This document shows, piece after piece, positions 3,946 to 63,216 of a stretch of DNA of 64,000 nt. Below the pieces are notes generated by a model, which was not told the DNA's origin, did not search any database, and saw only the letters and a program-made list of their open reading frames with translations. The translations under genes and the position numbers were made by a program. Source of the stretch: a virus. Its lineage: Duplodnaviria > Heunggongvirae > Uroviricota > Caudoviricetes. How positions within the stretch are numbered: the stretch's first letter is position 1; each line of letters starts with the position of its first letter. The stretch lies in the IMG/VR virus record IMGVR_UViG_2740892441_000001, one strand, 5' to 3'.

Positions 3946-3986
3946 AAACAACTTGTTTTCTCAATGGCGTAAATAATACCAGTAAG
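3946..3986 (-). promoter_or_regulatory. conserved early-promoter-like motif
   Basis: AAACAACTTGTTTTCTCAATGGCGTAAATAATACC. Confidence 0.35.
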
Positions 3987-4087
3987 AAAACGGCTACAAA
4001 GCATATTGATCAGGTGCATGAGCGATATGCAGGTTCTTCCCTGCGGCTATAGAGAAATTAAGCCAGCAATGCTGGCTTTGGTTGGGG

Positions 4088-4417
4088 TTACTCGAATACT
4101 TCAAGAAACTCCTGAACGTCCCAATGCTGGACGAGGTGAAGATAGACCTTAGAAATCACGTCATTTTCGCTATCGCATGTGAAGTAGTACTTCTGGCTGC
4201 GGTTGTATGTGTCCACACAAAATTCGCTCATATCCATAAAGTCAGCATCTTCACCCATGTCGCAAATCATCAAAGCAGGTGCGTCATCACGAGTCATCAG
4301 CTCAAGCACCCACCGCGAATTGATCAGAGTGGAAGACCAACCTTCTAACTCATAAAACTGATCAAACTCTTTTTGAGTTAATTTCTTGATTTGGTTGATG
4401 TCGATATTTGCAAACAT
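4088..4417 (-). CDS. hypothetical acidic small protein
   Basis: 109 aa, D/E-rich; promoter motif upstream. Confidence 0.5.
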   Translation of the reverse strand: MFANIDINQIKKLTQKEFDQFYELEGWSSTLINSRWVLELMTRDDAPALMICDMGEDADFMDMSEFCVDTYNRSQKYYFTCDSENDVISKVYLHLVQHWDVQEFLEVFE

Positions 4418-4429
4418 AAATCAATCCTT

Positions 4430-4478
4430 AAACAACATGTTTTCTTATTGGTGTTATTATCGCAATAACGCATAGGCG
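4430..4478 (-). promoter_or_regulatory. conserved early-promoter-like motif
   Basis: AAACAACATGTTTTCTTATTGGTGTTATTATCGCAATAACG. Confidence 0.35.
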
Positions 4479-4784
4479 AAAAAGGATTTTATTCCGGTGA
4501 ATGTGGTTTTGGCAGTGAGTTTTCAGGTTCAGTACCGAGTACACTTTTTACATTATTCTGATTTAGTAGCCGAAGGTGGCTGGTGGGCAGAATAATCATC
4601 TCCCCGAAAACCTACTGAAATCGATTGTGACCCGCTGACTGTCTGGCACAATTACGCTGTAGTTGGGCATTCAGAGGGAATCCAGCGGTAAGTAAGTTCG
4701 CCTGCACGTGAGCGCCTCTCTTCTTCCCGCACATTACAGGTGGATAGCCGCAACTCTCCCTCTCGCTATACCGGTACGCCGCCG

Positions 4785-4910
4785 TTCCTGAACCGGCATC
4801 GAGCCTTTTCCCGAAATCCACACAGGCAACTCGACCGTTTCCCTGAAAACCTCCAGCCGTTCCCCGAAGGCAACCCAGCCGTTTCTGTAGCGGGATGCAG
4901 CCTTTTCCCT
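4785..4910. repeat. six tandem ~20 bp repeats (A)GCCGTTTCCC(T)GAA
   Basis: Direct repeats visible by eye; same motif at 1145-1235. Confidence 0.5.
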
Positions 4911-5089
4911 GTATGGACCGAAGGCTGACCGTAGGGGTGTTACGGGGGATAAAATCAGTAGTTGAATAAATACGAAAAAGGAGGCGACACCCCTCCTTCC
5001 CTCCCCACTTATACATACCTGGCTTCTTCGCTATGCATGTTGTGTTTTCTTCGTGTTTTATCTGTTTCAACCTCTCTATAGGCGTTAAT

Positions 5090-5500
5090 GCTCACTCCTT
5101 CCAGAACGTTCTATACGGCAACTATTTCTGTTGGTGAATTGGGTGTGTTGTTTTCTCTGTCGGTGTATGTGGTTTCGTTCGTTTTGCGGTGGTTCTTCTA
5201 TAGGGTGTTCTCGTCGTTTTGGTGATTGTTCTTCTCCGTCTATGGAGTAATGGCAGGTGGGCGATTCCTTTCGTTATTGTGTTTGAGTTGTTTGTCTGGA
5301 GTGCGTGAAGGGCTTTTGTAGTTATTCGTGTATTGGGTAATGGCGTTTCCCGTGATTGTTCTGTTTCGTGTCTTTTGGGATTGAAGAATCCTTGCGGTAA
5401 CAGGCTTCGTTGGGGTTTCAGTGATTCTGGTGTTTCTTCGCTGTTTGGGTAATGGCGTGTCGTGGGTATCGCGCGTATGAATGTTTTCGGATTGCCTGTG
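5090..5500. repeat. G+T-rich low-complexity tract (plus strand), ORF-free
   Basis: Extreme strand compositional skew; the only ORFs are low-complexity minus-strand artefacts. Confidence 0.45.
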
Positions 5501-5504
5501 AAAG

Positions 5505-5590
5505 TTAGGTTGGTTGTCCGGTAGCCTGGGAAGAAGAGGTGGGTCTTTTCGGTAGCCTGCCATAAAGAGGTTGGTTGTTTTTGGGAATGG
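5505..5590. repeat. second copy of the ~80 bp repeat element seen at 1845-1932
   Basis: Alignable by eye to 1845-1932. Confidence 0.4.
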
Positions 5591-5980
5591 CATATGCGTT
5601 ATTTAGTTGTTTTGTTATGCCTGAAAATAAGTTGTTTATATGGTTATGTAACGCAACGGGAACGATTTTGAGCGTGTGTTTTTGTTGGTAGTGTGTTGGG
5701 TCGTCTGTGGTGAAAATTGGACGCTGTGGCGCTGTCTGCTGCGTAGGATTGCGGGTATAAGAAGTAATGTGTGAAAACGTCAATTTTTTAGACCAAATCG
5801 GGTGAAAGCGTTGACGTTTCGTTGATCTGTTATTCAGTTGTTTTCTTGTTTGTATAAACAACTATAACCTATTGATATTTAAGGGTGTGATTGCAGGTAT
5901 GGAAGGGGAGTAGTGGCGATCAACGGATTCTTATAGAAAAGAATCAAATTGTGACCGCCATTATCAATAAGTTGCAACCG

Positions 5981-24917: not shown

Positions 24918-25466
24918 TTACACAATTTCAGAGGGTAATTTAAAAAATCCGTACTTATTACGTGCCTTAAAGAAGCATTGCATCATTAAGTTTGTGTCAT
25001 ATAAGGCACTATGTGCTTTGGCATGATCGTATATAAAGCCAAGAGAGAAGGCCAACTCTTCAAGGCGGGGACGTTTACCGTCTTCTGTGGCCCACAGGGA
25101 AAATAGAGTGTCAATCAATGGGATGTCTGGAAGCGAAAAACCGTAACTTTTCAGCTCATGCCTAATAAACGGAATATCGAACGCTTCGCCGTTGTGGGCT
25201 ATCCAAATATCGGAAGAAGAGAGATACGAAGCGACAGATGAAGCGTGATCGGCTAGTAACGGCTCGGCGGCTAAATCTTCAAGACTGATGCCGTGTACCG
25301 CTTGCGCTTTCGGATCGATACTGCGACGCGGGTTGAACCGCATTGCAAAACTATCAACCATTGTCTGTGTCTCAATTTCGTACTTCACCATTGCGATTTC
25401 AATGATTTTATGGCCTGAGAGGAAATCAAGACCTGTTGATTCGATGTCCACCCCTGTAGCAATCAC
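24918..25466 (-). CDS. DnaQ-like 3-5 proofreading exonuclease (DEDDh)
   Basis: Exo motifs DIESTGL, HNGEAFDIPF, HSALYD. Confidence 0.7.
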   Translation of the reverse strand: MIATGVDIESTGLDFLSGHKIIEIAMVKYEIETQTMVDSFAMRFNPRRSIDPKAQAVHGISLEDLAAEPLLADHASSVASYLSSSDIWIAHNGEAFDIPFIRHELKSYGFSLPDIPLIDTLFSLWATEDGKRPRLEELAFSLGFIYDHAKAHSALYDTNLMMQCFFKARNKYGFFKLPSEIV

Positions 25467-26257
25467 TTTTTATCTCCTTTTACTGGTCGTTTGGACGGTG
25501 TGAAGATGGCAGCTTCAACATCCCACCCCCTCAAAATTCGCTGCGAGATAATGGTCGCAGTCAAGCCAACCTCTCTAGCCCATTCGGTAATTCGCTGAGT
25601 TCTGCCGCGACACTCGATCAGACGCTTACTATCTCGGTTGGCATACGTGTCGACGCTGGCGTTAAGCGCGCGATCTAATGGCCACCCTTTCTTGATTCGA
25701 TAGTGAAGAGTTGATGTCTGAATCCCGGCTCTTTTAGCCCATTGTGAGAGAGTCAGCTTTTCCCCCTTATGCTCCAAAATTAAGTTTGAACGCGTGTTAT
25801 TGGCCTGTTCTTCAAAAGTCGCCCATCTGCAATTTTCAGGTTCGTAGTCACCATTCACATCTTTGCGATCAAGAGACATCCCCTCTGGTCGCTCTCCCAT
25901 GTCAGCATAAAAGTTTTCAAATATTTGCCACCGCTCGCAGACTTTGATACCTCGGCCGCCATACCACTTATAGGCGTGATGGGTTGGTTTTTCACATCGT
26001 TCCCGCATACCCAGCCATATACGATAAATTGGCGTTTTACTCATACCATGAGGCTTTACGCTACGGCGATGTGCGTTGTAGACACAGCCACACGATATTG
26101 TCGCCCCGTGATTTAGCTTCCCGTAACTAACCAGGCAGGTGTTGCCGCAATCGCAGATGCAATCCCAAAGTCGCCCTTGTTTGTTTGAAATACCGGAATA
26201 TTTAAGTGCAACCAACTTTCCAAAACGTTTACCTGTTATGTCTACCGGTTGTCCCAT
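25463..26257 (-). CDS. HNH-family homing-endonuclease-like protein
   Basis: Cys cluster; DRKDVNGDYEPENCRWATFEEQANN HNH-like motif; C-terminal helix-turn-helix-like repeats. Confidence 0.55.
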   Translation of the reverse strand: MGQPVDITGKRFGKLVALKYSGISNKQGRLWDCICDCGNTCLVSYGKLNHGATISCGCVYNAHRRSVKPHGMSKTPIYRIWLGMRERCEKPTHHAYKWYGGRGIKVCERWQIFENFYADMGERPEGMSLDRKDVNGDYEPENCRWATFEEQANNTRSNLILEHKGEKLTLSQWAKRAGIQTSTLHYRIKKGWPLDRALNASVDTYANRDSKRLIECRGRTQRITEWAREVGLTATIISQRILRGWDVEAAIFTPSKRPVKGDKK

Positions 26258-26266
26258 TACTACTCC

Positions 26267-26685
26267 TTACAACTTCTTAGCGCCCTTAAGTAGTGCGCTA
26301 CGTACAAATTGAGCCGCTTTTTTCAAAGTTTCTTCACTGGTTTCACAGACAACCGGATCTTTCCACTTACCTGACGCCGTGTTGAGAATGTTGATTTGGT
26401 TGCTATCCAGACAAACAGAGACGTAAAGCACCGTGCCACCAGCCAGCATCAAATGCATAGGAAACAGAGGCTTTTTACTGCCTTCACTGAACTGAGACAT
26501 GGCGATGTTAATGCTTCACCTACTTGTGCGCCAACAAGCCCTTGCGCAATTTCGAATACGGTACGAATAGCCAGACGAGCCTCTCGATCGCTCATAAGCG
26601 ACCGGGAATGTTCGTCCGCTACACGAATCAAAGCCTCTGTTGTTTTCCGATCCAGTTCATCTTCAAGTAACATTTCACTAAACAT
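26267..26685 (-). CDS. hypothetical protein, possibly one gene split by a frameshift (ORFs 26449-26685 and 26267-26500)
   Basis: Two same-strand overlapping ORFs in different frames. Confidence 0.3.
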
Positions 26686-34708: not shown

Positions 34709-35451
34709 TTACCATGTTCCCCATAGAGGGTTTTCCAATAATCTCGCCTCCAACGAATTGGCTACTATTGCCGTTTGCAACGTTGGTTGGGGATAGTTTG
34801 CAAAGTCTGAATACTCATTTTCCTGCGTGACACGTTTATCTACGGCATGTTTAACGCCACTTGCTATGAAATGACGCATGATACCCAACAGCCTCCGACT
34901 GTCTGCACTATCGTTTGCTAAAACATGAGGGAGCTGAAGTTCGATTTCTACCATTTCTCCATACTTACCAACAAACTGTAGTTTGTCCGCACTGTACTTT
35001 TTATCCCTCCTTTGGATAAGGAAACCAGTAAAAGCATCACCTGGCGATGCCAAACTATCCACCCGCTTATTGGCAAGTCGAATAAGGTTCGTGAAAGCCA
35101 TACAGTGATGCGCCCCCATTCCCCCAAAGAATCCTTCGCTATTAATGTTAAGATCTTCAGTTTCATGGGATGCAATAAACCCAGGCCCGACGTTGGGAGA
35201 TATCCCCCCTCAACAAAAGGATTAATCAGGATCGGCGCAATACATCCAGGTGGTAGTGATTTCAAACTTTGCATCAATGGTGTCTCGGATATTAGACCAA
35301 GCAACGCGGCGAATTGTACTCCGTCAATATTGTTGCTGCCCCACAGAATACGTGGAGCCGCACCATTGGAAGTATGCCCATTGATCAGTTTTATCGACTG
35401 CATCACTGCAAATACCTGCAAAAACTGCGAGCGGCTTAATTTAAACGACAT
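34709..35451 (-). CDS. hypothetical protein, apparently frameshifted (ORFs 34948-35451 and 34709-35119)
   Basis: Overlapping same-strand ORFs; C-homopolymer at about 35205. Confidence 0.3.
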
Positions 35452-37357
35452 AGCTGCGCCCCTCTTTAACTTCCAGCGTAATAGTTTCCCGGAACCATGA
35501 CTTCATCTCTTTATGGGAGATAATCAGCACAGTACCTCGCTCGCGAGCTTTGGACTCCAGAATACCCATGAGGCGTTCAAGACCGGCTGTATCGAGTGCA
35601 TCGTCAATTTCGTCGCCGATAAACAAATCGATGTTTTTACTCGCCCGGTTACTAACCAGATCCTGCAATGCCAAAGAACACGCAATGCGAACCTTCCGCT
35701 TCTCACCACCAGAGAGGGTTTGGAACGACTTACTTGAACCTTTCTTCTGCACACTAATGTTGAATTTGTCGCGATACTCACCTTTTTTAGTGACATCCAT
35801 CGTCGACCACTCAGCAGTAATGTTCCCGTCAGACAACGTATTGAGATATTCTGCTGTGCGTGTATTCAGGAAAGGCGTAACAGACGTCAAAATATGAGAA
35901 CGCACCCCGGCAGGAGAGTAGACCTGACGAGCTTTTTCCAATAGCAACGTTTGTTCCTGAATAGCCTTCAACTCATCTTTTAAGGACTTGAAGGTAGACT
36001 TACTGGATACCAGGTTATCTTCGTGTCTGGCGATAAGAGCAATAAACGGATTAATCTCTTTTGATATACGATCGACCTCAGTACGAGCACGAGTCACAAG
36101 AGACTCAATAGCAACAACCTCCTTCTCACGATGACGCAAAGATGAGAGTTGTTTCGTAAGCTCTTCAATCCGGGCAATGATAGCCGTTACATCAGGTGTC
36201 GTTTTAACAAGGGCAGACTCAATGCTTAACGCTTTCTCAAGATTCGTTTTGTGTTTAGCCATTGCCTCTGCAAGTGTCTTCGCCTGACCAATTTCCTGAC
36301 GTGCTTGTTCAATGAAATTCTCCTTCACCGTTGATAGATCTTCTTCGCAGTAGGCTTTGCCACAAGTAGGGCATGGTGATCCCACTTTAGTACCAACCTC
36401 TTCTGCTTTGGTCTTAAAATTACGCGCACGGTTCATTGCATCAGCCTGACTATTTTCTGTAGCTTTGATGCTTGCCCGAATATCAGTTATCGCACCACGA
36501 ACTTTGAGCAACTTGGCGTCATGTTCTTCTTTTGAGGCTAACTTTTTGCGCTCACTTTCGATTGCCTTCTCGGTATCACGTATCTGTTCGGGAAGAGTGC
36601 GGATCTCAAGTTCAACTTCCGTTAACTCAACTTCGGCACTGGCCAGCCCAGCCAGGGCATCGTCATAACGTTTAGAACGCTCTTGCTCCCATGATTCAGA
36701 GGAGGCTTTCGCTGACTCAATTTCTGACTGTGTTGCCTCAATGGTCGAGATTGTCGACTCCAATTTGGTTTTAACCACATCCATACGTGCGGCAGCTGCA
36801 TTAGCTCGCTCACGAGCAATAGCGTAGGCGCGTGTCAGTCTGTCAACGCCAGCGGCTTCTTCTACGATGGTTTTGAGGTTTTTGTCGGACATTCCAGGTA
36901 AATCTGGCATAGCTTCTTGGCTCGCATAGATGGAAGCCATGAAAACCTCTTTAGATGCACCAATCAGGCGTTCAACGAACTCCTGCGTCAGCGTGTCCTT
37001 GCCTTTGGTCATGTCACCGTCTTCACCGCGGACGATCAGCCGGTTCTTGAACTCTTTGTGTTTACGGTGACGAATGATCGCGTATCTCTTGCCTTCATCC
37101 TCAACAGTCACCATTACACGACAGTTTTTCTCGTAGCCTGTAGACAGCACGTCGTCACCTTTGACTCCATGCGCAGTTTCGCCATACAGACACCACATCA
37201 GGCTGTTCATCAAAGTAGATTTACCAGCGCCATTACTTGATGCGGAACTATCATCACTATTAACACCCTGAATGAGCACTAAACCACGCTGATCTAACTC
37301 GACCTCCGCGCTGGCGATAGCCATAAAATTCTCAACCTGGAGCTTTAAAAACTTCAT
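35441..37357 (-). CDS. SbcC/Rad50-like recombination nuclease ATPase subunit
   Basis: Walker A NGAGKST, long coiled coil, CPTCG zinc hook-like motif, C-terminal LSGGEKRK signature and Walker B. Confidence 0.75.
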   Translation of the reverse strand: MKFLKLQVENFMAIASAEVELDQRGLVLIQGVNSDDSSASSNGAGKSTLMNSLMWCLYGETAHGVKGDDVLSTGYEKNCRVMVTVEDEGKRYAIIRHRKHKEFKNRLIVRGEDGDMTKGKDTLTQEFVERLIGASKEVFMASIYASQEAMPDLPGMSDKNLKTIVEEAAGVDRLTRAYAIARERANAAAARMDVVKTKLESTISTIEATQSEIESAKASSESWEQERSKRYDDALAGLASAEVELTEVELEIRTLPEQIRDTEKAIESERKKLASKEEHDAKLLKVRGAITDIRASIKATENSQADAMNRARNFKTKAEEVGTKVGSPCPTCGKAYCEEDLSTVKENFIEQARQEIGQAKTLAEAMAKHKTNLEKALSIESALVKTTPDVTAIIARIEELTKQLSSLRHREKEVVAIESLVTRARTEVDRISKEINPFIALIARHEDNLVSSKSTFKSLKDELKAIQEQTLLLEKARQVYSPAGVRSHILTSVTPFLNTRTAEYLNTLSDGNITAEWSTMDVTKKGEYRDKFNISVQKKGSSKSFQTLSGGEKRKVRIACSLALQDLVSNRASKNIDLFIGDEIDDALDTAGLERLMGILESKARERGTVLIISHKEMKSWFRETITLEVKEGRSYVV

Positions 37358-37632
37358 ATAACACCTCTGATATCGTGTGTTAGCTTTTGGCCTTCTTTCA
37401 ATCTGAACTCCGTATGCGCCGGGAAGGATCTGCGCCTCAATACGCCTTTTCTTGTTAACCTTCCAAGATAAAACGCTACGGGATTTCCTTGTGGCGGGTA
37501 GGGCTTGTGAAACATCACCGTCTGGCCTCGTTCAAGTCTTTTCATCGTGATGGCAAAGTCTCGAAAGCTCCCATAACGACTTTGCTTCACACAGCCTCCG
37601 AACTCTCCGCTTCGGTGAGGATTTCCTGACAC
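37354..37632 (-). CDS. hypothetical small protein between the sbcD-like and sbcC-like genes
   Basis: 92 aa ORF overlapping both neighbours; may be spurious. Confidence 0.2.
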   Translation of the reverse strand: MSGNPHRSGEFGGCVKQSRYGSFRDFAITMKRLERGQTVMFHKPYPPQGNPVAFYLGRLTRKGVLRRRSFPAHTEFRLKEGQKLTHDIRGVI

Positions 37633-38672
37633 AAAATATCCAATTTGCTCAGATCAAATCCGCCGTCAGTATCGTGGACAATCTTGCAATAAGCAGATAC
37701 CGACTCTCCCAGGCTATCGATTTTGCTGGTTTCAGTTGTGCTGGCTGTCCCTTCCATCATTGATGACTTACGGATGAAGTTGCACACGACACCTTTTGCA
37801 CCCATTGTTTTGAGGATGTTCTGGTACTTAATGCCTTCTTCATCGTTCTCAATTACGGCGCGGAAACGCACGTAGTTGCCGCGAATTTGGTCATCAGCAA
37901 CATCATCTTCCAGGTTAATGAATTTAGGCGCACTGGTTTCGTAGTGACTGAAACTGCCGTCCGGGTTTACGATCATGTAGCCAGCCAGAGATCCAACATC
38001 TCCCCAATTTTGATGAGTCAGTGCACCGACACTGATAACTCCAGGAATGACCTCTTTGTGGTTGTGGTAATGCCCACTAAGCACGAGACGAAAGCCGATA
38101 TCCTTTAACTCCTGCGCATCGATACCGACGTCAGGCATTGTTGGAATGGCTTTGTTAATGGATGTATGGATAACAACGTCATGATTATCACCTTCTACGC
38201 TCTTACGTAATGCTTTCAGATCGCTGATAAGCTCCGCATGATTGTTACGCCAGCTAATCAGGTGGACAGTGACATCACCAATTTTTATTGAGTGTGGGCG
38301 TTTTCCACATACGATTACCACGCCGATAGAACTCAGCGATGCTGCTGCGTTGGCGCTATATACTGAATCGTTGGTTTCAAGATCGTGATTACCGGCCAGC
38401 ATTACTACTGTCAGATCAAGCTCGTTGATAATCCACTTGTACGTTTCAGTTACGTAATGCAGAACAGAAGGGGACACAGTTCCTCGGACGTGAAATGTAT
38501 CACCGGCAACCAACATGTACTTACAACCAGCCTTCTTCATGGCGATGGCGGCTTCTTTCGTTGCTTCCAACTGTATTTCAAGTCTGGAGTTAAGCCCCTC
38601 AGCGTTCGTCGTGGAGAACGCATCCCATTTGTGGTAGTGGCAGTCAGAAATGACGCCGTATGGCAAAGTCAT
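37587..38672 (-). CDS. SbcD/Mre11-like nuclease subunit
   Basis: Calcineurin-like phosphoesterase motifs (DCHYH, GDTFH, GNHD); start refined to ATG with AAGGAAAAA RBS. Confidence 0.75.
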   Translation of the reverse strand: MTLPYGVISDCHYHKWDAFSTTNAEGLNSRLEIQLEATKEAAIAMKKAGCKYMLVAGDTFHVRGTVSPSVLHYVTETYKWIINELDLTVVMLAGNHDLETNDSVYSANAAASLSSIGVVIVCGKRPHSIKIGDVTVHLISWRNNHAELISDLKALRKSVEGDNHDVVIHTSINKAIPTMPDVGIDAQELKDIGFRLVLSGHYHNHKEVIPGVISVGALTHQNWGDVGSLAGYMIVNPDGSFSHYETSAPKFINLEDDVADDQIRGNYVRFRAVIENDEEGIKYQNILKTMGAKGVVCNFIRKSSMMEGTASTTETSKIDSLGESVSAYCKIVHDTDGGFDLSKLDILCQEILTEAESSEAV

Positions 38673-38785
38673 GTGTTTTTCCTTTGTGGTTATTTTGATA
38701 CAGATATTAAGTGTGTTTGAGAGGCGAACAATCCAGATAACACGGCCATTAAGAATGTTCACAGACACATGATTATGGCAAATTC

Positions 38786-45619: not shown

Positions 45620-47959
45620 TTAATCTTCTAGTTCTTCTGTTGGTGATGTCTTCTCTCGTCGGTCATCTATCGCCTGTAACGCAGCAATGATTTCAGCCAG
45701 TGGCTTCTCCCGATACATCTCGACGATCTGCGATTTGGTGTATTTCTTGTCACCAATTTCAACTCTCCCGCTGGCGTTCTTTGGCAGGTATCCTTCTTCC
45801 AGCATGTACTCGACGAGCGATTCGATAACGTCGAGGCCACGAGTAGGATCGAAGTAGAATTTCCAGGTGCATTTGCCATACGGTGGTGCAACTTTGTTTT
45901 TGATGCACTCTGCGCCTACGTCCTGACCGATCTTCTCTTTCCCATCCTTCATCACCGATGCACCGAGACGGATGCGCACAGAAGCGTAAAACTTCGGTGA
46001 ATCGCCGCCTGGAGACGTAGTAGGGTCGCCAAACATTACACCGATTTTTGTGCGAACCTGATTCAAGAAGATGATGCAGGCGTTGTATTTGCGTGCCCAC
46101 AAAGCCAGAGTAGGGAAGTTCGCACTCGTCGCACGCGCCAGTGCCGTATTGTCGTTCATGTTTAGCTGATCTTTGTCTTTGGCTGTGCCTTCAGCCATCT
46201 TTTCGAACTTCTCGGCTTTGGAGTTCGGAACCATAGACGCAAGAGAGTCAGCCACGATACAGATAGGTGCTGATTCGGGGATAAGCTCTTCATCACGAAC
46301 CAATTTAAGTATTGTGCCGATCAACTCTACAGAGTCTTCGAAGGTATCTGGCTGCTTGTATACCCACTGACCGTCATCCTCATCTGCATTCAAACCATTG
46401 GCTACAGCCAGGCCAACGTCAAAACTGTTTTCATGATCGAGGAATACCGCCAGACCATCTTGTTTTTGAGCGGAGATCATCGCTGCTGTTGCAAGGAATG
46501 TGTTGTGGCTGATAATCCCGTTAGACCAGAAAGAGTGTGTTTCCGGCATCGCTACGTCGAACGTTGGTGCTTCACCTTCCTCAATAGCCACGACTTCGTC
46601 GTAGAACAAGTTAGAGCCAATTACCGCTGCCAGTTGTGCAAACAGATGCTCGTTAAAACGATTCTTTCTGCCAATGAAGGAGACATAGATTTCTCGCAGT
46701 TTGTCTATTCCGACACGATCGCCGCGGCCAATAACGTGGTCTACCAGAGCGTAGTCTTCACGGGTGGTCTTGGTGAGCGACTCGTAGAGTGATTTCACTA
46801 AGCCGCTGATGTGCGGAACATAGCCTGAGTAAGTGCGGTCAAAACCAATGTCCCGTTTGGTTGCCACTGATAAACGTGCCGGAGATTCGAAACCAATCGT
46901 TGACAGAAAAAGGTCGTAATTAGAGCCACTGAATGACAGCCGGTAATATGTATTTTCATAACCCGCGACGTGTTTTTCAGAGATAGTTGACGTAATCCCC
47001 AGATTCAGGAGCATGAGGCGAATTTGCTGTAGCAGCAGCCCACTCGCGCTCACAACCTCAATGCAGCGACCATCATTGACGTGGCATTCCAGCTCAAAGT
47101 AGCCGCGAAGGAATGCAATTTGAGCCTCGCTATTGGCGCGACGCACACTCAACGGAACCTGCTTGCCAGCAGCTTTCTCATACTCCAGACCATATTCTTT
47201 AAAAAGCAGCGAACGCACCTCTTTGCTAAACAGCACATGGTCTTCCGAGCCGTTATGTTTTCTCGTAACTGGCATCTTGTCTGATACCAGCGAAATGAGG
47301 CGGTAGTACTCATCCTTGATGAAAGGATCTGTGTTAGAAAAATTCACTGAATTTTCAGAGGCCACGTATCCGTCAGCAATTAAATAGCCCATCAGTTTTG
47401 CGATATTGGCATCCAGGTGCTGATCGCCGAATTGATGTGTGCCAACCATTGAAGGAATCGTGTCGCCTACACTGATTTTTTCAGCATGTCGCCAGACGAC
47501 ATTACCTAAGTCGTCAACCACACGGATTGGGTGACGGAACGTAGCCTCGATATAACCGCCTGATGCCAGCTTAATACGCTTGAATTTGCGACGGTTGTTC
47601 CATGTCAGGTGTGAGGTCTTCTCTATCACGCCATTTTCATTGATGAGTCCAACGTTATGCTCTACATCGCGAGTAGTGCATGTCGCTTTGTACCCTTCAA
47701 TCTCAAACAACTCTTTCACTGTTACCATTCCACGCTCCGTCAGCAGCATGGTGTCTGCGGTAACACATTTCCCCGCACTTGGAGGACCGAATACTTCGAC
47801 GATACGACCACATGGGAAACCGCCATCGTAACGACCGGAAATCGCTTTGTTTAACGGAGGAAAGCCTGTGTCAATCCAATGAGTTACTTTCTGAATTTCG
47901 TCGTTGCTACCGATTTTCTTTTTCAGAGCAAGTGCCAGTGCGGATTTTCCTTTTGCCAT
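45620..47959 (-). CDS. recA: RecA-like recombinase interrupted by an in-frame intein
   Basis: Exteins give GPPSAGK|TFLAT (Walker A) and a RecA-like C-terminal core (IFLNQVRTKIGVMFGDPTTSPGG..KFYASVRIRL); about 357 aa without the intein. Confidence 0.8.
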   Translation of the reverse strand: MAKGKSALALALKKKIGSNDEIQKVTHWIDTGFPPLNKAISGRYDGGFPCGRIVEVFGPPSAGKCVTADTMLLTERGMVTVKELFEIEGYKATCTTRDVEHNVGLINENGVIEKTSHLTWNNRRKFKRIKLASGGYIEATFRHPIRVVDDLGNVVWRHAEKISVGDTIPSMVGTHQFGDQHLDANIAKLMGYLIADGYVASENSVNFSNTDPFIKDEYYRLISLVSDKMPVTRKHNGSEDHVLFSKEVRSLLFKEYGLEYEKAAGKQVPLSVRRANSEAQIAFLRGYFELECHVNDGRCIEVVSASGLLLQQIRLMLLNLGITSTISEKHVAGYENTYYRLSFSGSNYDLFLSTIGFESPARLSVATKRDIGFDRTYSGYVPHISGLVKSLYESLTKTTREDYALVDHVIGRGDRVGIDKLREIYVSFIGRKNRFNEHLFAQLAAVIGSNLFYDEVVAIEEGEAPTFDVAMPETHSFWSNGIISHNTFLATAAMISAQKQDGLAVFLDHENSFDVGLAVANGLNADEDDGQWVYKQPDTFEDSVELIGTILKLVRDEELIPESAPICIVADSLASMVPNSKAEKFEKMAEGTAKDKDQLNMNDNTALARATSANFPTLALWARKYNACIIFLNQVRTKIGVMFGDPTTSPGGDSPKFYASVRIRLGASVMKDGKEKIGQDVGAECIKNKVAPPYGKCTWKFYFDPTRGLDVIESLVEYMLEEGYLPKNASGRVEIGDKKYTKSQIVEMYREKPLAEIIAALQAIDDRREKTSPTEELED
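46502..47767 (-). mobile_element. intein with LAGLIDADG homing-endonuclease domain inserted in the RecA P-loop
   Basis: Begins with Cys after GPPSAGK, ends ...SHN before Thr; LAGLIDADG-like blocks LMGYLIADGYV and FLRGYFELECHV; 422 aa. Confidence 0.7.
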
Positions 47960-47961
47960 GA

Positions 47962-48234
47962 TCAGGCTCCTTTTGTTTCGTTGATTCGTTTTAAAGCGGC
48001 GGATTCGTCGAATACAATCGCATCGTGGTTAAGGAGTCTGGATACACGAGCGAGGATTTTTACGACCTGCTCGCTGACTAATCCAAACTCGCGATCTGTC
48101 GCTTTCATTCCGGCAGCGCCTAGAATTGACGGCAGTGCGATGACAGCGTACTCACCGTGATAAAAGACAATCTCTTTTGCCAGTTGGGCAGGGGTGGTTG
48201 TAGCGCCATTAATAATCGATTTAAGCATTAGCAA
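47962..48234 (-). CDS. hypothetical protein
   Basis: 90 aa ORF. Confidence 0.45.
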   Translation of the reverse strand: MLMLKSIINGATTTPAQLAKEIVFYHGEYAVIALPSILGAAGMKATDREFGLVSEQVVKILARVSRLLNHDAIVFDESAALKRINETKGA

Positions 48235-49171
48235 TACCTTTCGAATGGAAGAACAAACACTTCAAGGTCTTCAAGGAACGAACGGAAATTCAGCTCGTAG
48301 CACAGTTGCTCGAATGCTTTCACGTCACGATTGCCTTTGATTGTTTCGATTTCGGTAGGCGGAAACTTCGTCTCAATCAGGTTCATTAGCGTGATGTTTC
48401 TCTTGAACGCTTCGAGCATTCGACAGCCTGTTTTCTCGTTGAAGGCATTCTTCGCTAGTTTGTTGAAGGCGGTCTTATGGCGTCCTTTGTCAACCACGAT
48501 TGAGCCGTCGTTGATGCCGCGTACCATCGTTGCGACACTTCCCCATTCATGCAGCAGCTCTTTCGCACCGCCAGCACCAATGCCACCAACACCGCTAATG
48601 TTGTCCGATTTATCGCCTTGTAATGCTTTTGCTTCCAAAAATGCGCGAGGAGTAGCGAATCCTGTCAGCTCCGCAAATTGCTCAAAATTAACCTGCTTGT
48701 TTTTGGCGTCTTCGCGCAGGCTTACCCAGCTTACGTTTTCGCGAACTAACTGAAGCCAGTCGCTATCGCCTGTTAACAGATAGATGTGTTCAACGGTTGG
48801 CTGCGCTGCCATGCGGGATACCAGCAGCCCGGCCAGATCATCCGCTTCTGCATCTTTTGCAATGAGTTGGGTAACTCCAAGCGCGGTCATCATTTTGAGG
48901 ATGTATGGCTTCTGGATAGCAAAGCCTTCCTTCATCTTTTTCATATCAGGATCGTCGTCGCGATTTGCTTTGTAGTCCGGGTAAAAGTCGCGACGCTTGT
49001 CACTAAATCCATCCCAAAGAATCATAGGTCGGGCATGGAGGATGGAGGCATAACGACGGACGTTCTTAACAAAGCCGAAAGCAGCCTGTACTTCCATTTC
49101 GCCGTTGTGCAATTTGTCAGATTGTTGGTGGTAATAACCCAGCTATTGCCATCTACGAAGAGATAATTCAC
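48228..49171 (-). CDS. flap endonuclease / 5-3 exonuclease, apparent frameshift near 49100
   Basis: C-terminal ORF has YKANRD, EADD, GDSD, GDKSDNISGVGGIG motifs; N-terminal LFVDGNSWV is in ORF 49022-49222 in another frame; proposed GTG start with GGAAGGAA RBS. Confidence 0.7.
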
Positions 49172-49231: not shown

Positions 49232-50260
49232 TTACAGAGAGTCCAGCTCTCTCAGTAGGTCATCCAGACCTTCATCTTCCGTCGCAGATGCGGCTGCTAC
49301 AGATGTCGCTGCGACTGCTTCAGACTCTTTGACTGATACTGCAACGGCAGCGGAACTTGCTTCTGGTTTAAATTCAGTTTCAACGGCACGGAGGATTTCT
49401 TCATCAACCAGACTGGTTGGTTCAGAAGCCGGTGTGTGCGCGGTTGCTACAGCCGTCGCTCCTTCTGTATGACCAGTGACAGAGCCAAATCCAGGTAGTG
49501 CCGCAGCCGATGTTTTCGCGGTTGAGGAAATTGCTGGTGCAGATGCTGCGGCAGTTGGTGCAGCGATGCCAATCAGACGACCCATAGTGCGAACTGTCGA
49601 CAGAAGACGAGTTTCATCAGCCTGATTTGCGTATGCGATCAGATCATGCTGGGTGTTCCAGAATTTATCTTCGATATCGCCTTTGTAGACTTTACGCTTA
49701 GGCGAGACGTCATATTTGGTATCGCGACCAGAGCCAGTACGTTTAATCAGGAATGCGTAGCCTTCCTCTTTGCTCAGTGGATTGCCGATATCATCAGCGA
49801 TGTCTTCGGTGATTGCTTTGCAGATATCATCGAATACAGTAGACGGCAGCTCGATTAACTGGCATTTCTCAGCATCTGCGAAATCCTCACGAGCAGAAAG
49901 AATGCCGTTGACCAGGTAGCGAGGAGTGGCACGCATTTGACCGATGCGTTCTTCCATTGCTTTGTTACCCTTGTGACGAGCGCGACCTTCCATCACCATT
50001 TCGCATAGCTGACAAGCGCGACCGTGAGTATGTTGCTCACAAATATAAGCGTTGGTTGCTTCTTTACCTTCCTCGTTCTGATACTTAACGTAGTGCATAC
50101 CGAAAGTCTGGAAGAACTTACCGTTTGGGTCGTCTTTATTCGGGAAGATGCGGATATAGTTGACGCCGTCTTTTAAGCGAGTCAGATCAACGTTGTTGCC
50201 ACGTTTGGCGGCAATGTCTTCACGAGTTTTGTTAAGCAAATCAAGTAATGTCTTAGACAT
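49232..50260 (-). CDS. putative ssDNA-binding protein (zinc-ribbon-like motif, acidic C-terminal tail)
   Basis: CEQHTHGRACQLC metal-binding-like cluster; Ala/Ser/Thr-rich linker; C-terminal EDEGLDDLLRELDSL acidic tail. Confidence 0.5.
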   Translation of the reverse strand: MSKTLLDLLNKTREDIAAKRGNNVDLTRLKDGVNYIRIFPNKDDPNGKFFQTFGMHYVKYQNEEGKEATNAYICEQHTHGRACQLCEMVMEGRARHKGNKAMEERIGQMRATPRYLVNGILSAREDFADAEKCQLIELPSTVFDDICKAITEDIADDIGNPLSKEEGYAFLIKRTGSGRDTKYDVSPKRKVYKGDIEDKFWNTQHDLIAYANQADETRLLSTVRTMGRLIGIAAPTAAASAPAISSTAKTSAAALPGFGSVTGHTEGATAVATAHTPASEPTSLVDEEILRAVETEFKPEASSAAVAVSVKESEAVAATSVAAASATEDEGLDDLLRELDSL

Positions 50261-50377: not shown

Positions 50378-50809
50378 TCAACGGGGAGTAATAAAGCGTT
50401 CAGAGCCTAATCGCTCTAATTCAACGATGGCCATCTTTGACGCCTGAACGATCATGTCTCGGCGATGCGAAAAGGCGGCGACAGCATGTTTGTATATGTC
50501 TGCGATGTGCCGTGCTTCATCCAACTTCTGCCGTTTAGACAGATACTGTGGGTTTGTTTTAACCTTAGCGTCCAGTACAGACTCGTTGAACTTAATGCCG
50601 TTCATACTCAAGTTCTTACGCTCTGTGTCGTATAGCTTTGCTTCAACAGCTTCAAGGTTAAGTTTTGCCTCTGCGACATCTCGATCTGCCTGCGCTAGTT
50701 TTGACCCATACTCCATTAAAAGCCGTGGCTGTTTACGCCATACTTCCTCAAGGTTGTCGCGGTCGAACTCCAGATCGGCCATGATTTTAGAAAAAATATC
50801 AGTGTTCAC
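50378..50809 (-). CDS. hypothetical protein
   Basis: 143 aa ORF. Confidence 0.5.
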   Translation of the reverse strand: MNTDIFSKIMADLEFDRDNLEEVWRKQPRLLMEYGSKLAQADRDVAEAKLNLEAVEAKLYDTERKNLSMNGIKFNESVLDAKVKTNPQYLSKRQKLDEARHIADIYKHAVAAFSHRRDMIVQASKMAIVELERLGSERFITPR

Positions 50810-52760: not shown

Positions 52761-55700
52761 TTACTTATTTATTGTCTCCGCGATATCAGCCAGAATGGCC
52801 TCCAGTCGCTCTCCTTCTTCCGGTCGGAAGTACAGGATATTCGGGTTAAATCCGTAGAAGACGGTTGCATCAAGCTCTGGGAAGTACTCCTTACGACCAA
52901 TCAGATCTGATGGTTTACTCTTATTGTTAAATAGTGCGGTTGAACGACTACCACACGTCAAAATGTAGGTCGGACGCACCAGATTGATCTCTTCACGCAT
53001 AAAGTCGGTGAACTGGCCGATCTCGTCTTTGGTGTAGTCTTTTTCTTTGTCTTTAACCTTCTTGCAAACGCCTGTGACATAGAGATCGCCCATGCGTAAA
53101 TCTCCAGCCGTCAATAGCTTGGCCTTAAAGTCGTCGTATCCGTTCTCCATGAAGTAACCGGTTCGAGCATCATTGCCGTTCGCATTGTCCAGAATGATCA
53201 TGATTTTCGGCTTAATACCAATGCTGGGGCGGATTAGTTCATCACCTAAGCCCATTTCAGCCGCCATCCGTGTCATGAGCACGTTAATCTCAGCCGAACG
53301 TTTGGGGTTCATCTCAAACGGACGTGAGGCTTTAACTGCGTCTATGACAAGGTTTCCCATCAATTCAGCCTGGTCGCGTAGGCGCTCTGGATCAGTTGCT
53401 GGCAGACTACCTGGCTCGATGGATGCAAACGCCCCTACTTTTTGCAGCGATTCGCGCACTCGACTATTACAGGCACGTTTCTCGACAGCTTCTTCGAATT
53501 GCGCCAGTGACTCGAATTTGCCGCCAACTTTTTCTCGCGCTCTCATGATGGCTTGGCAGCCATTCTCAGAACACCCCTTCACAGCAGAGAAGGGCGCATA
53601 CAGCACCTGGCTGCCATCTTCAAGCGTGCGGATCTCGATTCGGTTAGATGACACGTTAACGTCTGGTGGCAATACGCGAATACCATAGGTCAGCGCATCT
53701 TTAACCAGCCCCTGGTGTTTATCTTCGCCAAGAATAGTGAGAGCAGCAGCGAAAAACTCTGCGGGATAATGAGTTTTCAACCACATAGATTGATAACTGA
53801 TTAAGGAGTAGGCAACAGAGTGTGATTTATTGAACTGGTAGGCACCATTTTTTTCGAATGCGGTCCAGATCTCCTTCGCTTTCATCTCTGATAGCCCTGG
53901 ATGTGACGCTGTAACGCGTACTGCGTTTATAGGTAGTTTTGCGCCGTGCTCAAGTGCCTCTTCGACAGTTTTCAGAGTTCCGTCTTCGCATTTAAAATGT
54001 TCCGCACGGTGAATGCGCTGTGTAGTGCCATCTTCCAGCTCAACGTCTATCCAGCCAGCTTGAGCCTGAACGATGAACTTCTCGCCCATGCTCTTCATTT
54101 TTTCCATGTTCTTCTTACCGATTGCGGAACGCACACCGTCAGCTTCAGCCATTGTGAAGCCGGCAAGCAATCGAGTCGCGTTCATCGTCTGTTCCTGATA
54201 GAGAATCACGCCATTTGTTTCCGCGGTAAGTTCATCAAGAACGGGGTGTAATGATTCCGGCGTCATAAAGCCTTTGGCGACAGAAACATAGTCGTCCAAC
54301 ATGCCGGATTGGATCGGGCCAGGTCGGAAGAGTGCGGTCGTGGCGACAACGGTTTTAAAGCTCATTGGCTCAATGCCACCGCCTAGATCTTTAAGCAGCT
54401 TGCGCATGGGGCCGGACTCCAGCTGGAATACGCCCTGTGTATACCCTGCAGCAAAACCATCCAGCACCTTGCGATCTTCAAGAGAAATGGCATCAAGATT
54501 GATATCTTCACCTGTGTTCTCTTTTATGTAGCGTTTTGCACTATCGAGCAAATCGAGAGTTGCCAGGCCAAGCACGTCCAGCTTAATTAGGCCCATAGCC
54601 TCGCAGTAACGCTTGTCAAATGCGATACAACGCGCGTCACCACGGCGCTCAACCGGTGTACGTTCTGTCAGAGGAACACCTGCTACAATCATCCCTGCCG
54701 CATGTCTACCAAAGCCACGCATAAGGCTTTGTAACTTGCAGGCTGCATTGAATGCATCAGGATATTTTGTTGCGTATTTGTCGAGACTTGCCAGTTGTTC
54801 GCGCAGCTCTTCCAATGGAAGGCTATCATCCTCGACGTTCTTCAGTTCTTTTGATACCGCCATATCTGCGGACTCCACACCATAAATACGAGCGGTGTCA
54901 CGTAGTGCAGAGCTGCGCCCAGGTAGGTGAAGTTCGGAATGCCTGCAACGTAATCTTCGCCGTAGCGTTCATTCAGATACTCGATCACCTCATGGCGACG
55001 TGCCTGGCTGAAGTCCAAGTCCGCATCCGGCAAGTCGAGACGCTCAGGGTTGATGAAACGCTCAAACAGAAGACCGTGACGGATTGGGTCGACGTTGGTT
55101 ATGCCTATGCACCACGCCACCAGAGAACCGGCAGAGGAACCACGACCAGGCCCGACAGGAATGCCAGTTTCACGGCTGTGATTCATCAGATCGCGTACCA
55201 TCAGGAAGTAACCACAAAATCCCAGGCGAGTCAGCGTGTTCATTTCGTACTTTAGCCGCTCAACATAAACCCTGTTCTCAGAAGCAGGTGGTGTGTATCC
55301 AAACTCTTTTGTGGTAAGACGTTTACGCAGCCCTGCAACAGCCAGTTTCATCAGCGTTGCAGGTTCGTCGTCTGCCATCTTGGGCAGTGCTGGTGGCAAT
55401 TCATGCCAGCGCCATGTGCAGGCATCGATAATGGAGTCCTGCGTTGTTGAGGCCATTGCAGCTGTTACCGGCACATCCATGCGAACGGAGAAGGCTTTAA
55501 GCGCCTCAAGGAGATGGCGACGACCATTGATGGCGTTATCTCGCTGGTGGGGGATACGCAGACGATGCGGCTGGTCGATTTTTATGTTGTTCGTAACCAT
55601 GTGCGCAATGTCTTTAATGTCTGCATCGTCGATCGATTCGTAATAAGCGGGATAGAACGCTACTGGCTCTATTTTCAGTGCGCTGGCTACTTTCATCGCT

Positions 55701-56278
55701 CGGACGTTAATCTGGTCGTAGAATGGGGTAGGGTGCGGATAAACCACGCTATAGAAGTTGTCTTTCCCGCCCGCTGTAATCAGTGAGCTTATGATTTTTG
55801 CAAAATCGTTGCGTTGGAACACGCTACCGATGTCGGAAGTGAGCAGGATGATGTTGCCTTTGGCATATGTAGAAACCAACTGTTCGAGCGAGAGACGCGG
55901 TACAAAGTAGAACTGTTCTCGTGTGTTGGCCACCGTCATTAGTTCGCAGATGTCGCGATATCCTTGCTCATTTTTAATTAGAGCGGTAAACGAGTAGTTA
56001 CGTCCCCGCTCTAATGATTCCATACATCTCATAGATTCTTTAGCAAGTTTAGCCCGGTGCTCGTATGTGGGATCATCAACGATATTTAGTTTCACACCAC
56101 AAATAACCGCCATGTCGTCACCAGCGGCACGTTGTAGTGGAATAACACTCGCAATATTCATGCTATCTGCTGAAATTACAGCGGTGTAGCCAGCTTCTCT
56201 GGCAATCTTCACCGCGTTTTCTGCTTTTAGAGCCGACTCCCCAAGTGAGAAGTCAGTTCGAACCATCAGTGCTTTCAT
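52761..56278 (-). CDS. dnaE: DNA polymerase III alpha-like (DnaE-type) polymerase, apparent frameshift near 54842-54878
   Basis: N-terminal ORF has PHP domain and GIPVGPGRGSSAGSLVAW..DPIRHGLLFERFINPER; C-terminal ORF has GLIKLDVLGLATL, GVFQLESGPM, FNKSHSVAYSLISYQSMWLKTHYPAEF. Confidence 0.8.
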
Positions 56279-57788: not shown

Positions 57789-59896
57789 TCACTTTAAAAT
57801 GATACGAGATAGTTCAGTAACTACAGATGAACCAAGACTATCAACGCTCGTTACCAGGGCATGATTTGAGTAAAATCTCTCCGGTGCGTCAGTCATGATG
57901 CCAATTGCCATCAAATCAATGTCAGTCTGCGTTTCAATTTGCTTCGCAACCGAACGCAAATGAGCGTCAAAACCTCTCCCAACAGCCCACGGCTCGCCAT
58001 CACTCAGAACAAGCATGATCTTCCTGTCCTCCATGCGACCGGAAAATAACGATGCAAGACTGGCTATGCTTTCACCATCCACGTTATTAAGAAGTGGGAA
58101 TGTGTAGCCTACGCACCCCATACGTGAGCGAACTTCGCGAGAATTTACCTTTTCATTCCAATTTTTGATGATAGGTAGCATTAAAGATTCAAAGCGAGAG
58201 AACTCATACTTGACAGCCTTAAGTTCTCCTGCCGCCATATGACTACCAAATGTAGTGAAGCCGGTGATAATGTTGGGAACATTTATTCGATCAAGGGCAT
58301 CGGCGATGGTATATGCACTTGCAAGAGCTAGTTTTATCGTTTCGCCACTCATTGAACCTGATAAATCAATCACTTGCTGAACACAGGCGTTAACGGCTTT
58401 AGATTCTTCTTTTTTACGAAACACGCGATCATCATTCATTGCTAATCTGTAGATACTAGAGCCATGAATGCGCCCCCGACGCTGGCCCGGTATAAACTGA
58501 ACTCTGTTTCTGCTTGCTATTGCACGTTCCAGGTCTTTTGCTAGCGTCGACGAAACACCTGACGAAAGATGCTTTTCAATATATTTGTCGAAGAGCTGGT
58601 TGCCTTCAGGAACGATGCGATAGCGGCTGATTGGATATCCTCCCAAATCAATATCGGAGAATGTTTTAATAAGCCGTTTGATATGGCTTCTGCCTGATCA
58701 ATCGAGCCGATGAAGTCGTATGAGCGATTGTATGGCCTGTATTCGCTTTTCGAGCTTTCTGTTAACTCGCTTTTAATCGTTTCGGATAGAGCATCTTCTG
58801 TCATGCCTCCGACTTCATCTTCTATGCTATCCAGCTCCTCTAAAGCCTCTTCCAGACTCATTTTTGACGGAGTTGGGATATCTGAAGAGCCGTCTTCTGT
58901 CGTTTTTCTTTTTTCGTGGTCAGCGGTTAATGATTCTGACGCCGCGTTATCAGAAGCATCAGAATCTGATACCTCTTTATCATTTTCTGTATCATCGAAT
59001 ATTGTTTCTGATGATTCAGAATTATCTGAATCATCACTGTTGTTATTATCATGTTTGTGCTTACTATGTGATTCTGATTTGATAGATTTGTGATTATCTA
59101 ACGATGAAGGTGTCTCATGATCTTCGTTGTCTTCATTGTTTTCTCCAGAGGCATCCGTCTGGTCAGCGTCAGAAGGATCGGAAGTTTTTCCCGGAGCTGA
59201 CTCCTTACCTTTGCTTTCACTTTCAGTGTCTTTGAGGATCTTAGCTATGGTCGCAGCCACCTTTACACAATCCTCGGTGCAAGACATGTTACGCACGGCC
59301 ACATCGATACCATATTCTTTTAATAATGAAATTGGTTTCTCAATGACAGGCCAGTATTCATCCATGAAATCTACGAACGGTGCTTGGCCATCCCAGGCTC
59401 TTACAACCGGACAGAGAAAGAAGTTTAGAAAAAGCGCGCGCTGATCTTTGCCACAATAAGCAATAGCCTCTGAAGCCTTTGGTTTAAAGACTTTTTCGAT
59501 TATAAGGCGCTGAGTTGCCATCAGATTACGTCTTGTTCCGTTAAAGACCTGACCCATTTTTCGCTCGATGAACACGTCTTCTAAGGCATTCCATAGCGAC
59601 CAGGAAGGAACGCGTCCTTTTTCTCTCATTTTGTTGGACACACGAATATCGGTAAACAAAATGTGAGCAACCTCATGATCGAGAAATCCGCGCACAGCAT
59701 TCATCAATGCCGGTGTTGCGTTATCCGGGATTGATGGGATGTTTACGAGAATTGGCTCTCCATCATCGTTATAGCGTACATAAGCGTCGTCCCCTCGTTC
59801 TGCAACAGGGATGTTTTTACCTGAAAGGAGAGCGACTACTCGTTTTACACTGTCACGGAAGTCCTGAACCTCTTTGATGGAACGTTTTTTAGACAT
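57789..59896 (-). CDS. CobT-like von Willebrand factor A protein with acidic Ser/Asp-rich linker, apparent frameshift near 58541-58646
   Basis: C-terminal ORF has MIDAS motif DLSGSM; N-terminal ORF carries an acidic low-complexity linker; the two overlap in different frames. Confidence 0.55.
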
Positions 59897-62968: not shown

Positions 62969-63055
62969 TGGCGGAGAGTAATGGAATCGAACCATCATCG
63001 CTTGCGCAATGGGACGGTTTTCAAGACCGCTTGAGCACCATGCTCTCTACTCTCC
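62969..63055 (-). tRNA. tRNA-Ser(TGA)
   Basis: Hand-folded: acceptor GGAGAGT/ACTCTCC, anticodon loop CTTGAAA, long variable arm, T-loop TTCGATT, encoded CCA; 87 nt. Confidence 0.7.
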
Positions 63056-63063
63056 AATTGTGT

Positions 63064-63139
63064 TGGTGCCGGTTAACGGATTCGAACCGCTGACATCCTG
63101 CTTACAAGGCAGGTGCTCTACCAACTGAGCTAAACCGGC
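63064..63139 (-). tRNA. tRNA-Thr(TGT)
   Basis: Hand-folded: acceptor GCCGGTT/AACCGGC, D-arm GCTC-AGTTGGTA-GAGC, anticodon loop CTTGTAA, T-loop TTCGAAT, encoded CCA; 76 nt. Confidence 0.8.
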
Positions 63140-63141
63140 AT

Positions 63142-63216
63142 TGGCGATGGTGGGTGGATTCGAACCACCGACCAGTTGGTTAACAGCCAACTGCTCTACC
63201 GCTGAGCTACACCATC
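63142..63216 (-). tRNA. tRNA-Asn(GTT)
   Basis: Hand-folded: acceptor GATGGTG/CACCATC, anticodon loop CTGTTAA, T-arm GGTGG-TTCGAAT-CCACC, encoded CCA; 75 nt. Confidence 0.8.

Follow-up and report, generated by a model that had tools for sequence, protein, structure and literature searches.

A LAGLIDADG intein within the Walker A motif of a RecA-like recombinase from SSU5-type phage-plasmids

The stretch of DNA analysed here, referred to below as the window, comprises 64,000 nucleotides (nt) of the IMG/VR record IMGVR_UViG_2740892441_000001, assigned to the Caudoviricetes. It contains a 779-residue open reading frame (ORF), which codes for a RecA-like recombinase whose Walker A motif is interrupted by an insert of 422 residues with the features of an intein. 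The window region shows 99.1% identity to Escherichia phage Cyrano (OV696614) and is part of the SSU5 group of phage-plasmids. Cyrano corresponds to pLF82 of Escherichia coli LF82, which is present at about 5.5 copies per cell and from which siphovirus virions are produced (PMC9928086). Since Cyrano/pLF82 carries the intein and makes virions, an intein-bearing element is fully viable.

The initial annotation, made from the sequence alone, had described the ORF as RecA-like at both ends; the ORF is present in the ORF list, and the Pfam RecA family (PF00154; 125.5 bits, cut-off 27) is recognised in it. Residues 58 to 64 of the precursor form the GPPSAGK segment of the Walker A motif, which the insert splits in frame between Lys64 and Thr487. 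The insert had also been said to start with a Cys directly after GPPSAGK and to end with His-Asn directly before Thr, such that its excision would restore the P-loop; reading the residues gave exactly this arrangement, and in silico removal of the 422 residues leaves 357 residues with the Walker A motif restored, GPPSAGKTFLAT. Two further Pfam families are recognised in the precursor, namely, LAGLIDADG_3 (PF14528; 63.4 bits, cut-off 22.5), which matches in two stretches, and Intein_splicing (PF14890; 44.3 bits, cut-off 35.8). Both termini of the insert are recognised by NCBIfam, as intein_Nterm (TIGR01445; 35.5 against a cut-off of 24.5) and intein_Cterm (TIGR01443; 17.8 against a cut-off of 15.6). 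The nearest intein-bearing NCBIfam models are those of archaeal P-loop hosts, the RFC small subunit and IF-2. The G+C content of the intein (48.2%) equals that of the exteins (48.6%), so composition shows no sign of a recent foreign origin. The features are listed in Table 1.

Table 1. Position of the recombinase precursor, its parts and other features in the window
Feature	Position	Strand	Basis or remark
Intein-containing RecA-like recombinase precursor, 779 residues, 86.6 kDa	45620..47959	-	ORF list; Pfam RecA, LAGLIDADG_3 and Intein_splicing
N-extein, residues 1-64, ending with Walker A GPPSAGK	47768..47959	-	aligned to E. coli RecA ...GRIVEIYGPESSGK
Intein, precursor residues 65-486 (422 residues, 47.5 kDa), Cys1 to His421-Asn422	46502..47767	-	exact 1266-nt indel; AlphaFold2; Foldseek
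C-extein, residues 487-779 and stop codon; first residue Thr487, both +1 nucleophile and Walker A Thr	45620..46501	-	Pfam RecA, residues 484-703
Splicing block B, TFRH, intein T76...H79	47531..47542	-	alignment of 74 relatives
Splicing blocks F and G, FDVAMPETHSFWSNGIISHN, with D404, H411, H421 and N422	46502..46561	-	alignment of 74 relatives; NCBIfam intein_Cterm
LAGLIDADG homing-endonuclease domain, about intein residues 116-385, nested in the Hint domain	46613..47422	-	Pfam LAGLIDADG_3; helix/strand pattern of the model
LAGLIDADG motif 1, LMGYLIADGYV, intein 125-135, catalytic Asp132	47363..47395	-	alignment of 74 relatives
LAGLIDADG motif 2, FLRGYFELECHV, intein 219-230, catalytic Glu227	47078..47113	-	alignment of 74 relatives
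Unit common to intein-containing alleles: intein with 9 nt upstream, GCGGGGAAA, and 8 nt downstream, ACATTCCT	46494..47776	-	presumed co-conversion tract
5'-3' exonuclease gene	48228..49112		T4-like recombination module
gp32-like single-stranded DNA-binding protein gene	49232..50260		PF08804 at 2e-67
UvsY-like protein gene	50378..50809		PHROG 231, weak match
Putative HNH-family homing endonuclease gene, 264 residues, separate from the intein	25463..26257	-	PHROG 374
RNase_T/DnaQ-like exonuclease gene	24918..25466		PF00929 at 2e-22

An alignment of 74 relatives of the intein served both to assess residue conservation and to model the structure. The search for splicing blocks suggested in the initial annotation found all four, A, B, F and G. 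Cys1 of block A is invariant, as are T76 of block B and D404 of block F, while H79 is kept in 71 sequences, H411 in 67, and the block G residues H421 and N422 in 73 each. The residue that follows the intein is the Walker A Thr, which suits the Cys, Ser or Thr that class 1 inteins require at position +1. The two LAGLIDADG-like blocks, from which a homing-endonuclease intein had been proposed, are likewise confirmed by the segments LMGYLIAD132G and RGYFELE227C, an Asp or Glu occupying the D132 column in 70 relatives and the E227 column in 67. The conserved Lys202 is also intact.

The AlphaFold2 model of the intein built on this alignment has a mean predicted local distance difference test score (pLDDT) of 96.0 and a predicted template modelling score of 0.94; a single-sequence prediction of the whole 779-residue precursor gave a pLDDT of 39.5. 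The intein model combines a Hint domain with a double-LAGLIDADG nuclease. Its first Foldseek match in the PDB is the intein TliVMA (7qss; E = 1.8e-25, template modelling (TM) score 0.74), followed by PI-PfuI (1dq3), PI-PkoII (2cw7) and PI-SceI. Taken alone, the Hint part matches the GyrA mini-intein (1am2) and 4oz6, and the nuclease part matches I-DmoI and I-Tsp061I (target TM scores of 0.65 to 0.74), that is, a pseudo-dimeric alpha-beta-beta-alpha-beta-beta-alpha fold. In residues and in predicted fold alike, the insert therefore has every feature of a class 1 intein with a two-motif LAGLIDADG endonuclease, for which splicing and cleavage are predicted, and both the observation and the intein interpretation of the initial annotation were correct. 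In other respects, the intein carries a non-catalytic Cys30 (window positions 47678-47680), conserved in 46 of the 74 relatives, which could form a disulfide bond with Cys1.

The alignment of the extein-only sequence to RecA and UvsX, proposed earlier as a check, supports the continuity of the host protein. Residues 29-305 of the spliced sequence align to residues 40-286 of E. coli RecA in one stretch across the junction (E = 2e-31), and removal of the intein lowers the E value against RecA structures from about 6e-24 (precursor) to 2e-31 (spliced sequence). The match to phage UvsX (9gbg) is weaker (E = 2e-9). With the equivalog model of bacterial RecA (TIGR02012), the score of 132.5 bits lies below the cut-off of 325.3, and the host is therefore considered a RecA-like phage recombinase and not an orthologue of chromosomal recA.

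Comparison with intein-free alleles, also called for in the initial annotation, delimits the insert to the codon. Eight such alleles lack exactly these 422 codons (an exact 1266-nt indel), and all eight read GPPSAGK/TFLATAAM, the slash marking the insertion point; close relatives with this reading include CMS-2020a, SSU5 and Yersinia pestis pMT1. In Escherichia phage CMS-2020a, Salmonella phage SSU5 and a Klebsiella plasmid, the gene is a single uninterrupted one of 357-358 codons. An insert of 422 codons is found at the identical point in Cyrano, in Klebsiella phage vB_KpnS_p4727, and in Klebsiella, Enterobacter and Kluyvera plasmids. The possibility that the two RecA-like ends belong to different genes in related genomes, which had been named as a finding that would overturn the intein interpretation, is ruled out, since the relatives carry one gene and never two.

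The intein has been known since 2015. Topilina, Novikova et al. (NAR 43:6631; PMC4513877) described five insertion points in RecA and RadA proteins, and their Table 1 lists "c2 (65-486)" in Enterobacter cloacae, Enterobacter sp., nine E. coli strains including MS 145-7, and Salmonella enterica. The intein DNA of the MS 145-7 plasmid (NZ_CP146657.1) is 100% identical to that of the window, and, the c2 coordinates being identical too, the window intein is the published one. It is the same element at the same K/T insertion point of the P-loop, but its host is here identified as a phage-plasmid recombinase that scores below the RecA equivalog cut-off. The word "phage" is absent from that article, and our literature search retrieved neither a paper linking inteins with SSU5-like elements nor a study of this intein beyond that of 2015. 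The present analysis adds the phage-plasmid host gene, the polymorphism of the intein, a clear signature of its recent lateral spread and the masking of the gene by its annotation. With regard to the latter, hundreds of plasmid records in RefSeq (for example, NZ_CP027358.1, NZ_CP041101.1 and NZ_AP027545.1) carry the precursor under the name "LAGLIDADG family homing endonuclease" or "hint domain-containing protein", and PHROG 9666, the family of the full-length 779-residue protein, is labelled "unknown function".

Several known inteins resemble this one in part. RadA-c1 of Pyrococcus horikoshii interrupts a RecA-superfamily host at the same GK/T point of Walker A, and is also a class 1 intein followed by Thr. 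It differs in being an archaeal mini-intein of about 170 residues that lacks an endonuclease, and conditional splicing has been demonstrated for it. The c1 and c2 inteins show little sequence similarity, which implies independent invasion (Topilina et al., PMC4513877). PI-MtuI of Mycobacterium tuberculosis (RecA-a) and the M. leprae RecA-b intein are likewise LAGLIDADG class 1 inteins of RecA, which keep their host inactive until spliced, but they sit at residues 252 and 206, respectively, at the monomer-monomer interface (PMC4513877), in the chromosomal recA of actinobacteria. TliVMA, PI-PfuI, PI-PkoII and PI-SceI (1vde) share the architecture of Hint and double-LAGLIDADG domains (Foldseek E values from 2e-25 to 1e-11, TM scores up to 0.74), but have only 10-21% sequence identity and other host proteins and target sites.

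The distribution of the intein among related plasmids was examined in PLSDB. A query spanning the junction found the gene in 829 plasmids, 571 of which carry it uninterrupted, including Y. pestis pMT1 and Salmonella plasmids, and intein occupancy amounts to about 30% of the 829 alleles. The intein DNA itself is present in 248 PLSDB plasmids, mainly from Escherichia (123), Klebsiella (71) and Enterobacter (41), the remainder being from a few Citrobacter, Shigella, Cronobacter, Kluyvera and Salmonella. Among 5426 complete E. coli genomes, 120 contain the intein, on plasmids only, and a further 129 the uninterrupted gene.

Intein and exteins were compared in whole-gene MAFFT alignments of the DNA, and the junctions by codon-registered extraction, as MAFFT misplaced the N-extein of intein-free alleles. 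Between the window and a Klebsiella allele, identity is 80.2% in the N-extein and 81.0% in the C-extein, against 97.0% in the intein; between the Klebsiella and an Enterobacter allele, the corresponding values are 85.9%, 84.0% and 99.8%. The number of synonymous substitutions per synonymous site (dS) between the window and Klebsiella is 0.09 for the intein and 2.2, hence saturated, for the exteins. Klebsiella and Kluyvera alleles show no difference over the 1266 nt of the intein, with an extein dS of 1.24. For the intein, the ratio of nonsynonymous to synonymous rates (dN/dS) is about 0.15 (0.18 in its endonuclease part), and for the exteins of intein-containing alleles it is 0.014-0.019.

The high identity extends only slightly beyond the intein. 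Positions -9 to +8 are identical in the six intein-containing alleles read, which represent three extein lineages, and positions -7 and +3 depart from this common flank in all eight intein-free alleles. Within 45 nt on either side of the junction, the sole differences in the Klebsiella lineage are at -7, -4 and +3. The intein-free junction of CMS-2020a reads ...GGTCCTCCAAGTGCAGGGAAA/ACGTTCCTTGCAACAGC... These data constitute a population signature of recent lateral spread. A nearly identical intein lying between diverged exteins, together with short shared flanks, is the pattern expected of homing with very short co-conversion tracts, and from these comparisons the intein has very probably been homing recently and appears to be spreading even now.

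Beyond the enterobacterial elements, relatives were sought exhaustively among 1.84 billion cluster representatives (clusters at 50% identity). This gave 4662 matches at E <= 1e-3, of which 189 reached E <= 1e-30, the best match being 48% identical. The family became visible through this exhaustive search of representatives, word-indexed protein searches having given 13 and 19 matches only. In nearly all of the best 150 clusters, an intein interrupts a P-loop behind its GK, and the next host residue is Thr or Ser. RecA-like proteins (EIYGPESSGK/C...HN/TTLALH) account for about 100 of the 150, and others lie in terminase-like and helicase-like P-loops, as read by eye. The metagenomic RecA P-loop inteins (P0020 to P0166) are 27-48% identical to the window intein over the full 422 residues and share the GK/C...HN/T or S junction. 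Among them, P0020 and P0021 occupy the same site of the same phage-type recombinase, with inteins that are 46-48% identical. Outside the alleles of enterobacterial phage-plasmids, no cluster representative in the exhaustive search exceeded 48% identity. Three relatives (P0007, P0012 and P0013) have decayed nuclease domains, as expected because of the homing cycle.

A single-protein scan of genome contigs gave two loci only. The locus at positions 2722-5709 of the Anaerolineae metagenome-assembled genome contig DAOTTO010000406.1 is a 995-codon chromosomal recA with two inteins. One, a c2 P-loop intein whose LAGLIDADG domain is intact, is 45% identical to that of the window, and the other is a mini-intein at KIGVMFG/C...VVHN/SPETT. 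Two other relatives were noticed: a 159-residue intein fragment of 73% identity on a chromosome-sized (5.2 Mb) E. coli contig, where its annotation is "hypothetical protein", and a 542-residue RuvB-domain protein with a related intein splicing domain.

We consider it highly probable that this gene of an SSU5-type phage-plasmid codes for a RecA-like strand-exchange ATPase, whose Walker A motif is split by a class 1 RecA-c2 intein with a double-motif LAGLIDADG endonuclease, and we infer its splicing, its cleavage activity and its cleavage site. The 86.6-kDa precursor would be translated with a broken P-loop and would have no ATPase action. Following an N-S acyl shift by Cys65, the thioester would be passed to the hydroxyl of Thr487, Asn486 would cyclise with the assistance of His485, and an O-N shift would join the exteins into a 39.1-kDa recombinase in which GPPSAGKTFLAT is restored. 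The released 47.5-kDa intein would then act as a site-specific endonuclease on the P-loop coding sequence of intein-free alleles. The occasion for such cleavage would arise when two phage-plasmids meet in one cell, and repair from the intein-containing copy would convert the empty allele, co-carrying flanks of about 9 nt and about 8 nt only.

Some points weigh against this interpretation. In the searchable literature, we found neither splicing nor cleavage experiments on this intein. The dN/dS is based on about 38 substitutions, and the junction reading covers 14 alleles only. Moreover, the fixed differences at -7 and +3 could mean that the empty sites are resistant to cleavage, rather than reflect co-conversion, and, as SSU5-like elements are mosaic in general, some of the lateral transfer could be due to ordinary recombination.

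That the intein is more than a parasite appears unlikely to us. It could then serve as a splicing switch that leaves the recombinase off and responds to DNA damage, single-stranded DNA or redox state, with Cys30 trapping Cys1, or its endonuclease could be a weapon that cuts rival intein-free SSU5-like phage-plasmids arriving in the same cell and converts or excludes them. Conditional splicing is known for the P. horikoshii RadA P-loop intein and for the M. tuberculosis RecA intein. A conditional switch in the strict sense, with splicing and hence recombinase activity delayed until a signal such as single-stranded DNA or DNA damage, redox state or temperature, would be compatible with the splicing and homing intein set out above, and is favoured by the site shared with RadA-c1, in which contacts between extein and intein gate splicing (PMC4513877). 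The partly conserved Cys30 and the location of the gene in a T4-like recombination module with a gp32-like single-stranded DNA-binding protein and a UvsY-like protein point in the same direction. However, the sequence itself gives no evidence of regulation, the intein is missing from about 70% of the elements, which speaks against a required role, and selfish spread fully explains both the polymorphism and the homing signature, so that we regard the switch as distinctly unlikely.

A second explanation is that the intein still splices but its endonuclease has become inactive, its scattered presence resulting from vertical descent and ordinary homologous recombination of mosaic phage-plasmids. 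Several replaced patches between the window and Cyrano indicate that recombination is frequent in these elements, and the decayed endonuclease domains of the c2 relatives P0007, P0012 and P0013 offer a precedent. Nevertheless, general recombination would not reproduce the stop of high identity about 9 nt and about 8 nt from the intein ends, seen independently in three extein lineages; the two catalytic acidic residues are intact, as is the conserved Lys202, and the endonuclease part shows a dN/dS of 0.18, which makes this explanation very unlikely. Finally, a dead, non-splicing insert that leaves the recombinase of intein-containing elements a tolerated pseudogene is barely credible, for even if the searchable literature holds no splicing experiment on this intein and the E. 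coli precursor modelled on the RadA arrangement shows steric clashes (Topilina et al., PMC4513877), no splicing residue has been lost and all are conserved, every intein-containing allele read has an unbroken ORF, and the extein dN/dS reveals a strong purifying selection that is unexpected for a dead gene.

With regard to its surroundings, the recombinase gene sits in a T4-like recombination and repair module, the other members of which are given in Table 1. SbcC/SbcD-like genes lie farther along (35441-38768), and the annotation of Cyrano adds RuvC, as well as a HicAB toxin-antitoxin pair beside the UvsY-like gene. A DNA polymerase III alpha-like gene forms a single 1168-codon coding sequence in Cyrano and two ORFs in the window (52761-54878 and 54842-56278). 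The split, at about 54911, is due to a 1-nt deletion outside any homopolymer (GCAGC-TCTG versus GCGGCATCTG), which could be either a sequencing error or a real frameshift. Past this split, we noted a diverged patch (53835-54083), and downstream identity is only 88%. A CobT-like phosphoribosyltransferase of 702 residues in Cyrano is similarly split in the window (57789-58646 and 58541-59896), in this case by a 1-nt deletion in a CCC run at about 58686 (GAAG-CCAT versus GAAGCCCAT). Three clustered minus-strand tRNA genes (62969-63216; Ser-tga, Thr-tgt and Asn-gtt) are also annotated in Cyrano.

The initial annotation further reported a free-standing HNH endonuclease gene beside a dnaQ-like gene, and counted it as a second selfish nuclease of the element. 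The ORF and its RNase_T/DnaQ-like neighbour, whose start it overlaps by 4 nt, are indeed present, and the ORF matches PHROG 374, "HNH endonuclease" (2e-79), as well as PHROGs 3377, 2081, 953 and 4578. The HNH label draws only on these PHROG family names and on the presence or absence of the gene at a fixed site among relatives, for no Pfam HNH family was found at E <= 0.01 (only a sub-threshold PVL_ORF50), no NCBIfam HNH model and no relevant PDB match. This gene is lacking in four collinear relatives, Cyrano, CMS-2020a, PhiR41_1 and SSU5, and window positions 25097-26261 stand in place of Cyrano 75752-76134. The gene occurs in 112 plasmids (105 from Klebsiella and 7 from E. coli), mostly at about 96% identity, and homologues are found in 1190 phage records, some within DNA polymerase genes. 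The gene is accompanied by a stretch of about 370 nt, at the 5' end of the adjoining exonuclease gene, that has diverged relative to Cyrano, and the patch from 25035 to 26500 is 91% identical to Klebsiella phages GArcari-2022a/b. This patch looks like a co-converted import from the Klebsiella lineage. As judged from these comparisons, the behaviour of the ORF fits a free-standing homing endonuclease recently imported from that lineage, its class being putative. In the window segments that differ from Cyrano, Pfam revealed no further homing endonuclease.

Knowledge of inteins as such is unchanged by these findings, whose main value lies in a natural model system and in the correction of an annotation. 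The "first E. coli intein" of the literature is a gene of a phage-plasmid and not the chromosomal recA, and the homing-endonuclease and hint labels of RefSeq hide a recombinase from gene-content surveys of phage-plasmids. Were the endonuclease to act as a weapon, competition among clinically common plasmids of Enterobacteriaceae would be shaped by the intein. If the splicing and homing reading is true, E. coli would offer a genetically tractable and naturally polymorphic intein-homing system, in which the exteins of the intein-containing Cyrano/pLF82 and the intein-free CMS-2020a are about 95% identical, and splicing, cleavage specificity, co-conversion length and any conditional control would be directly testable in the native host.

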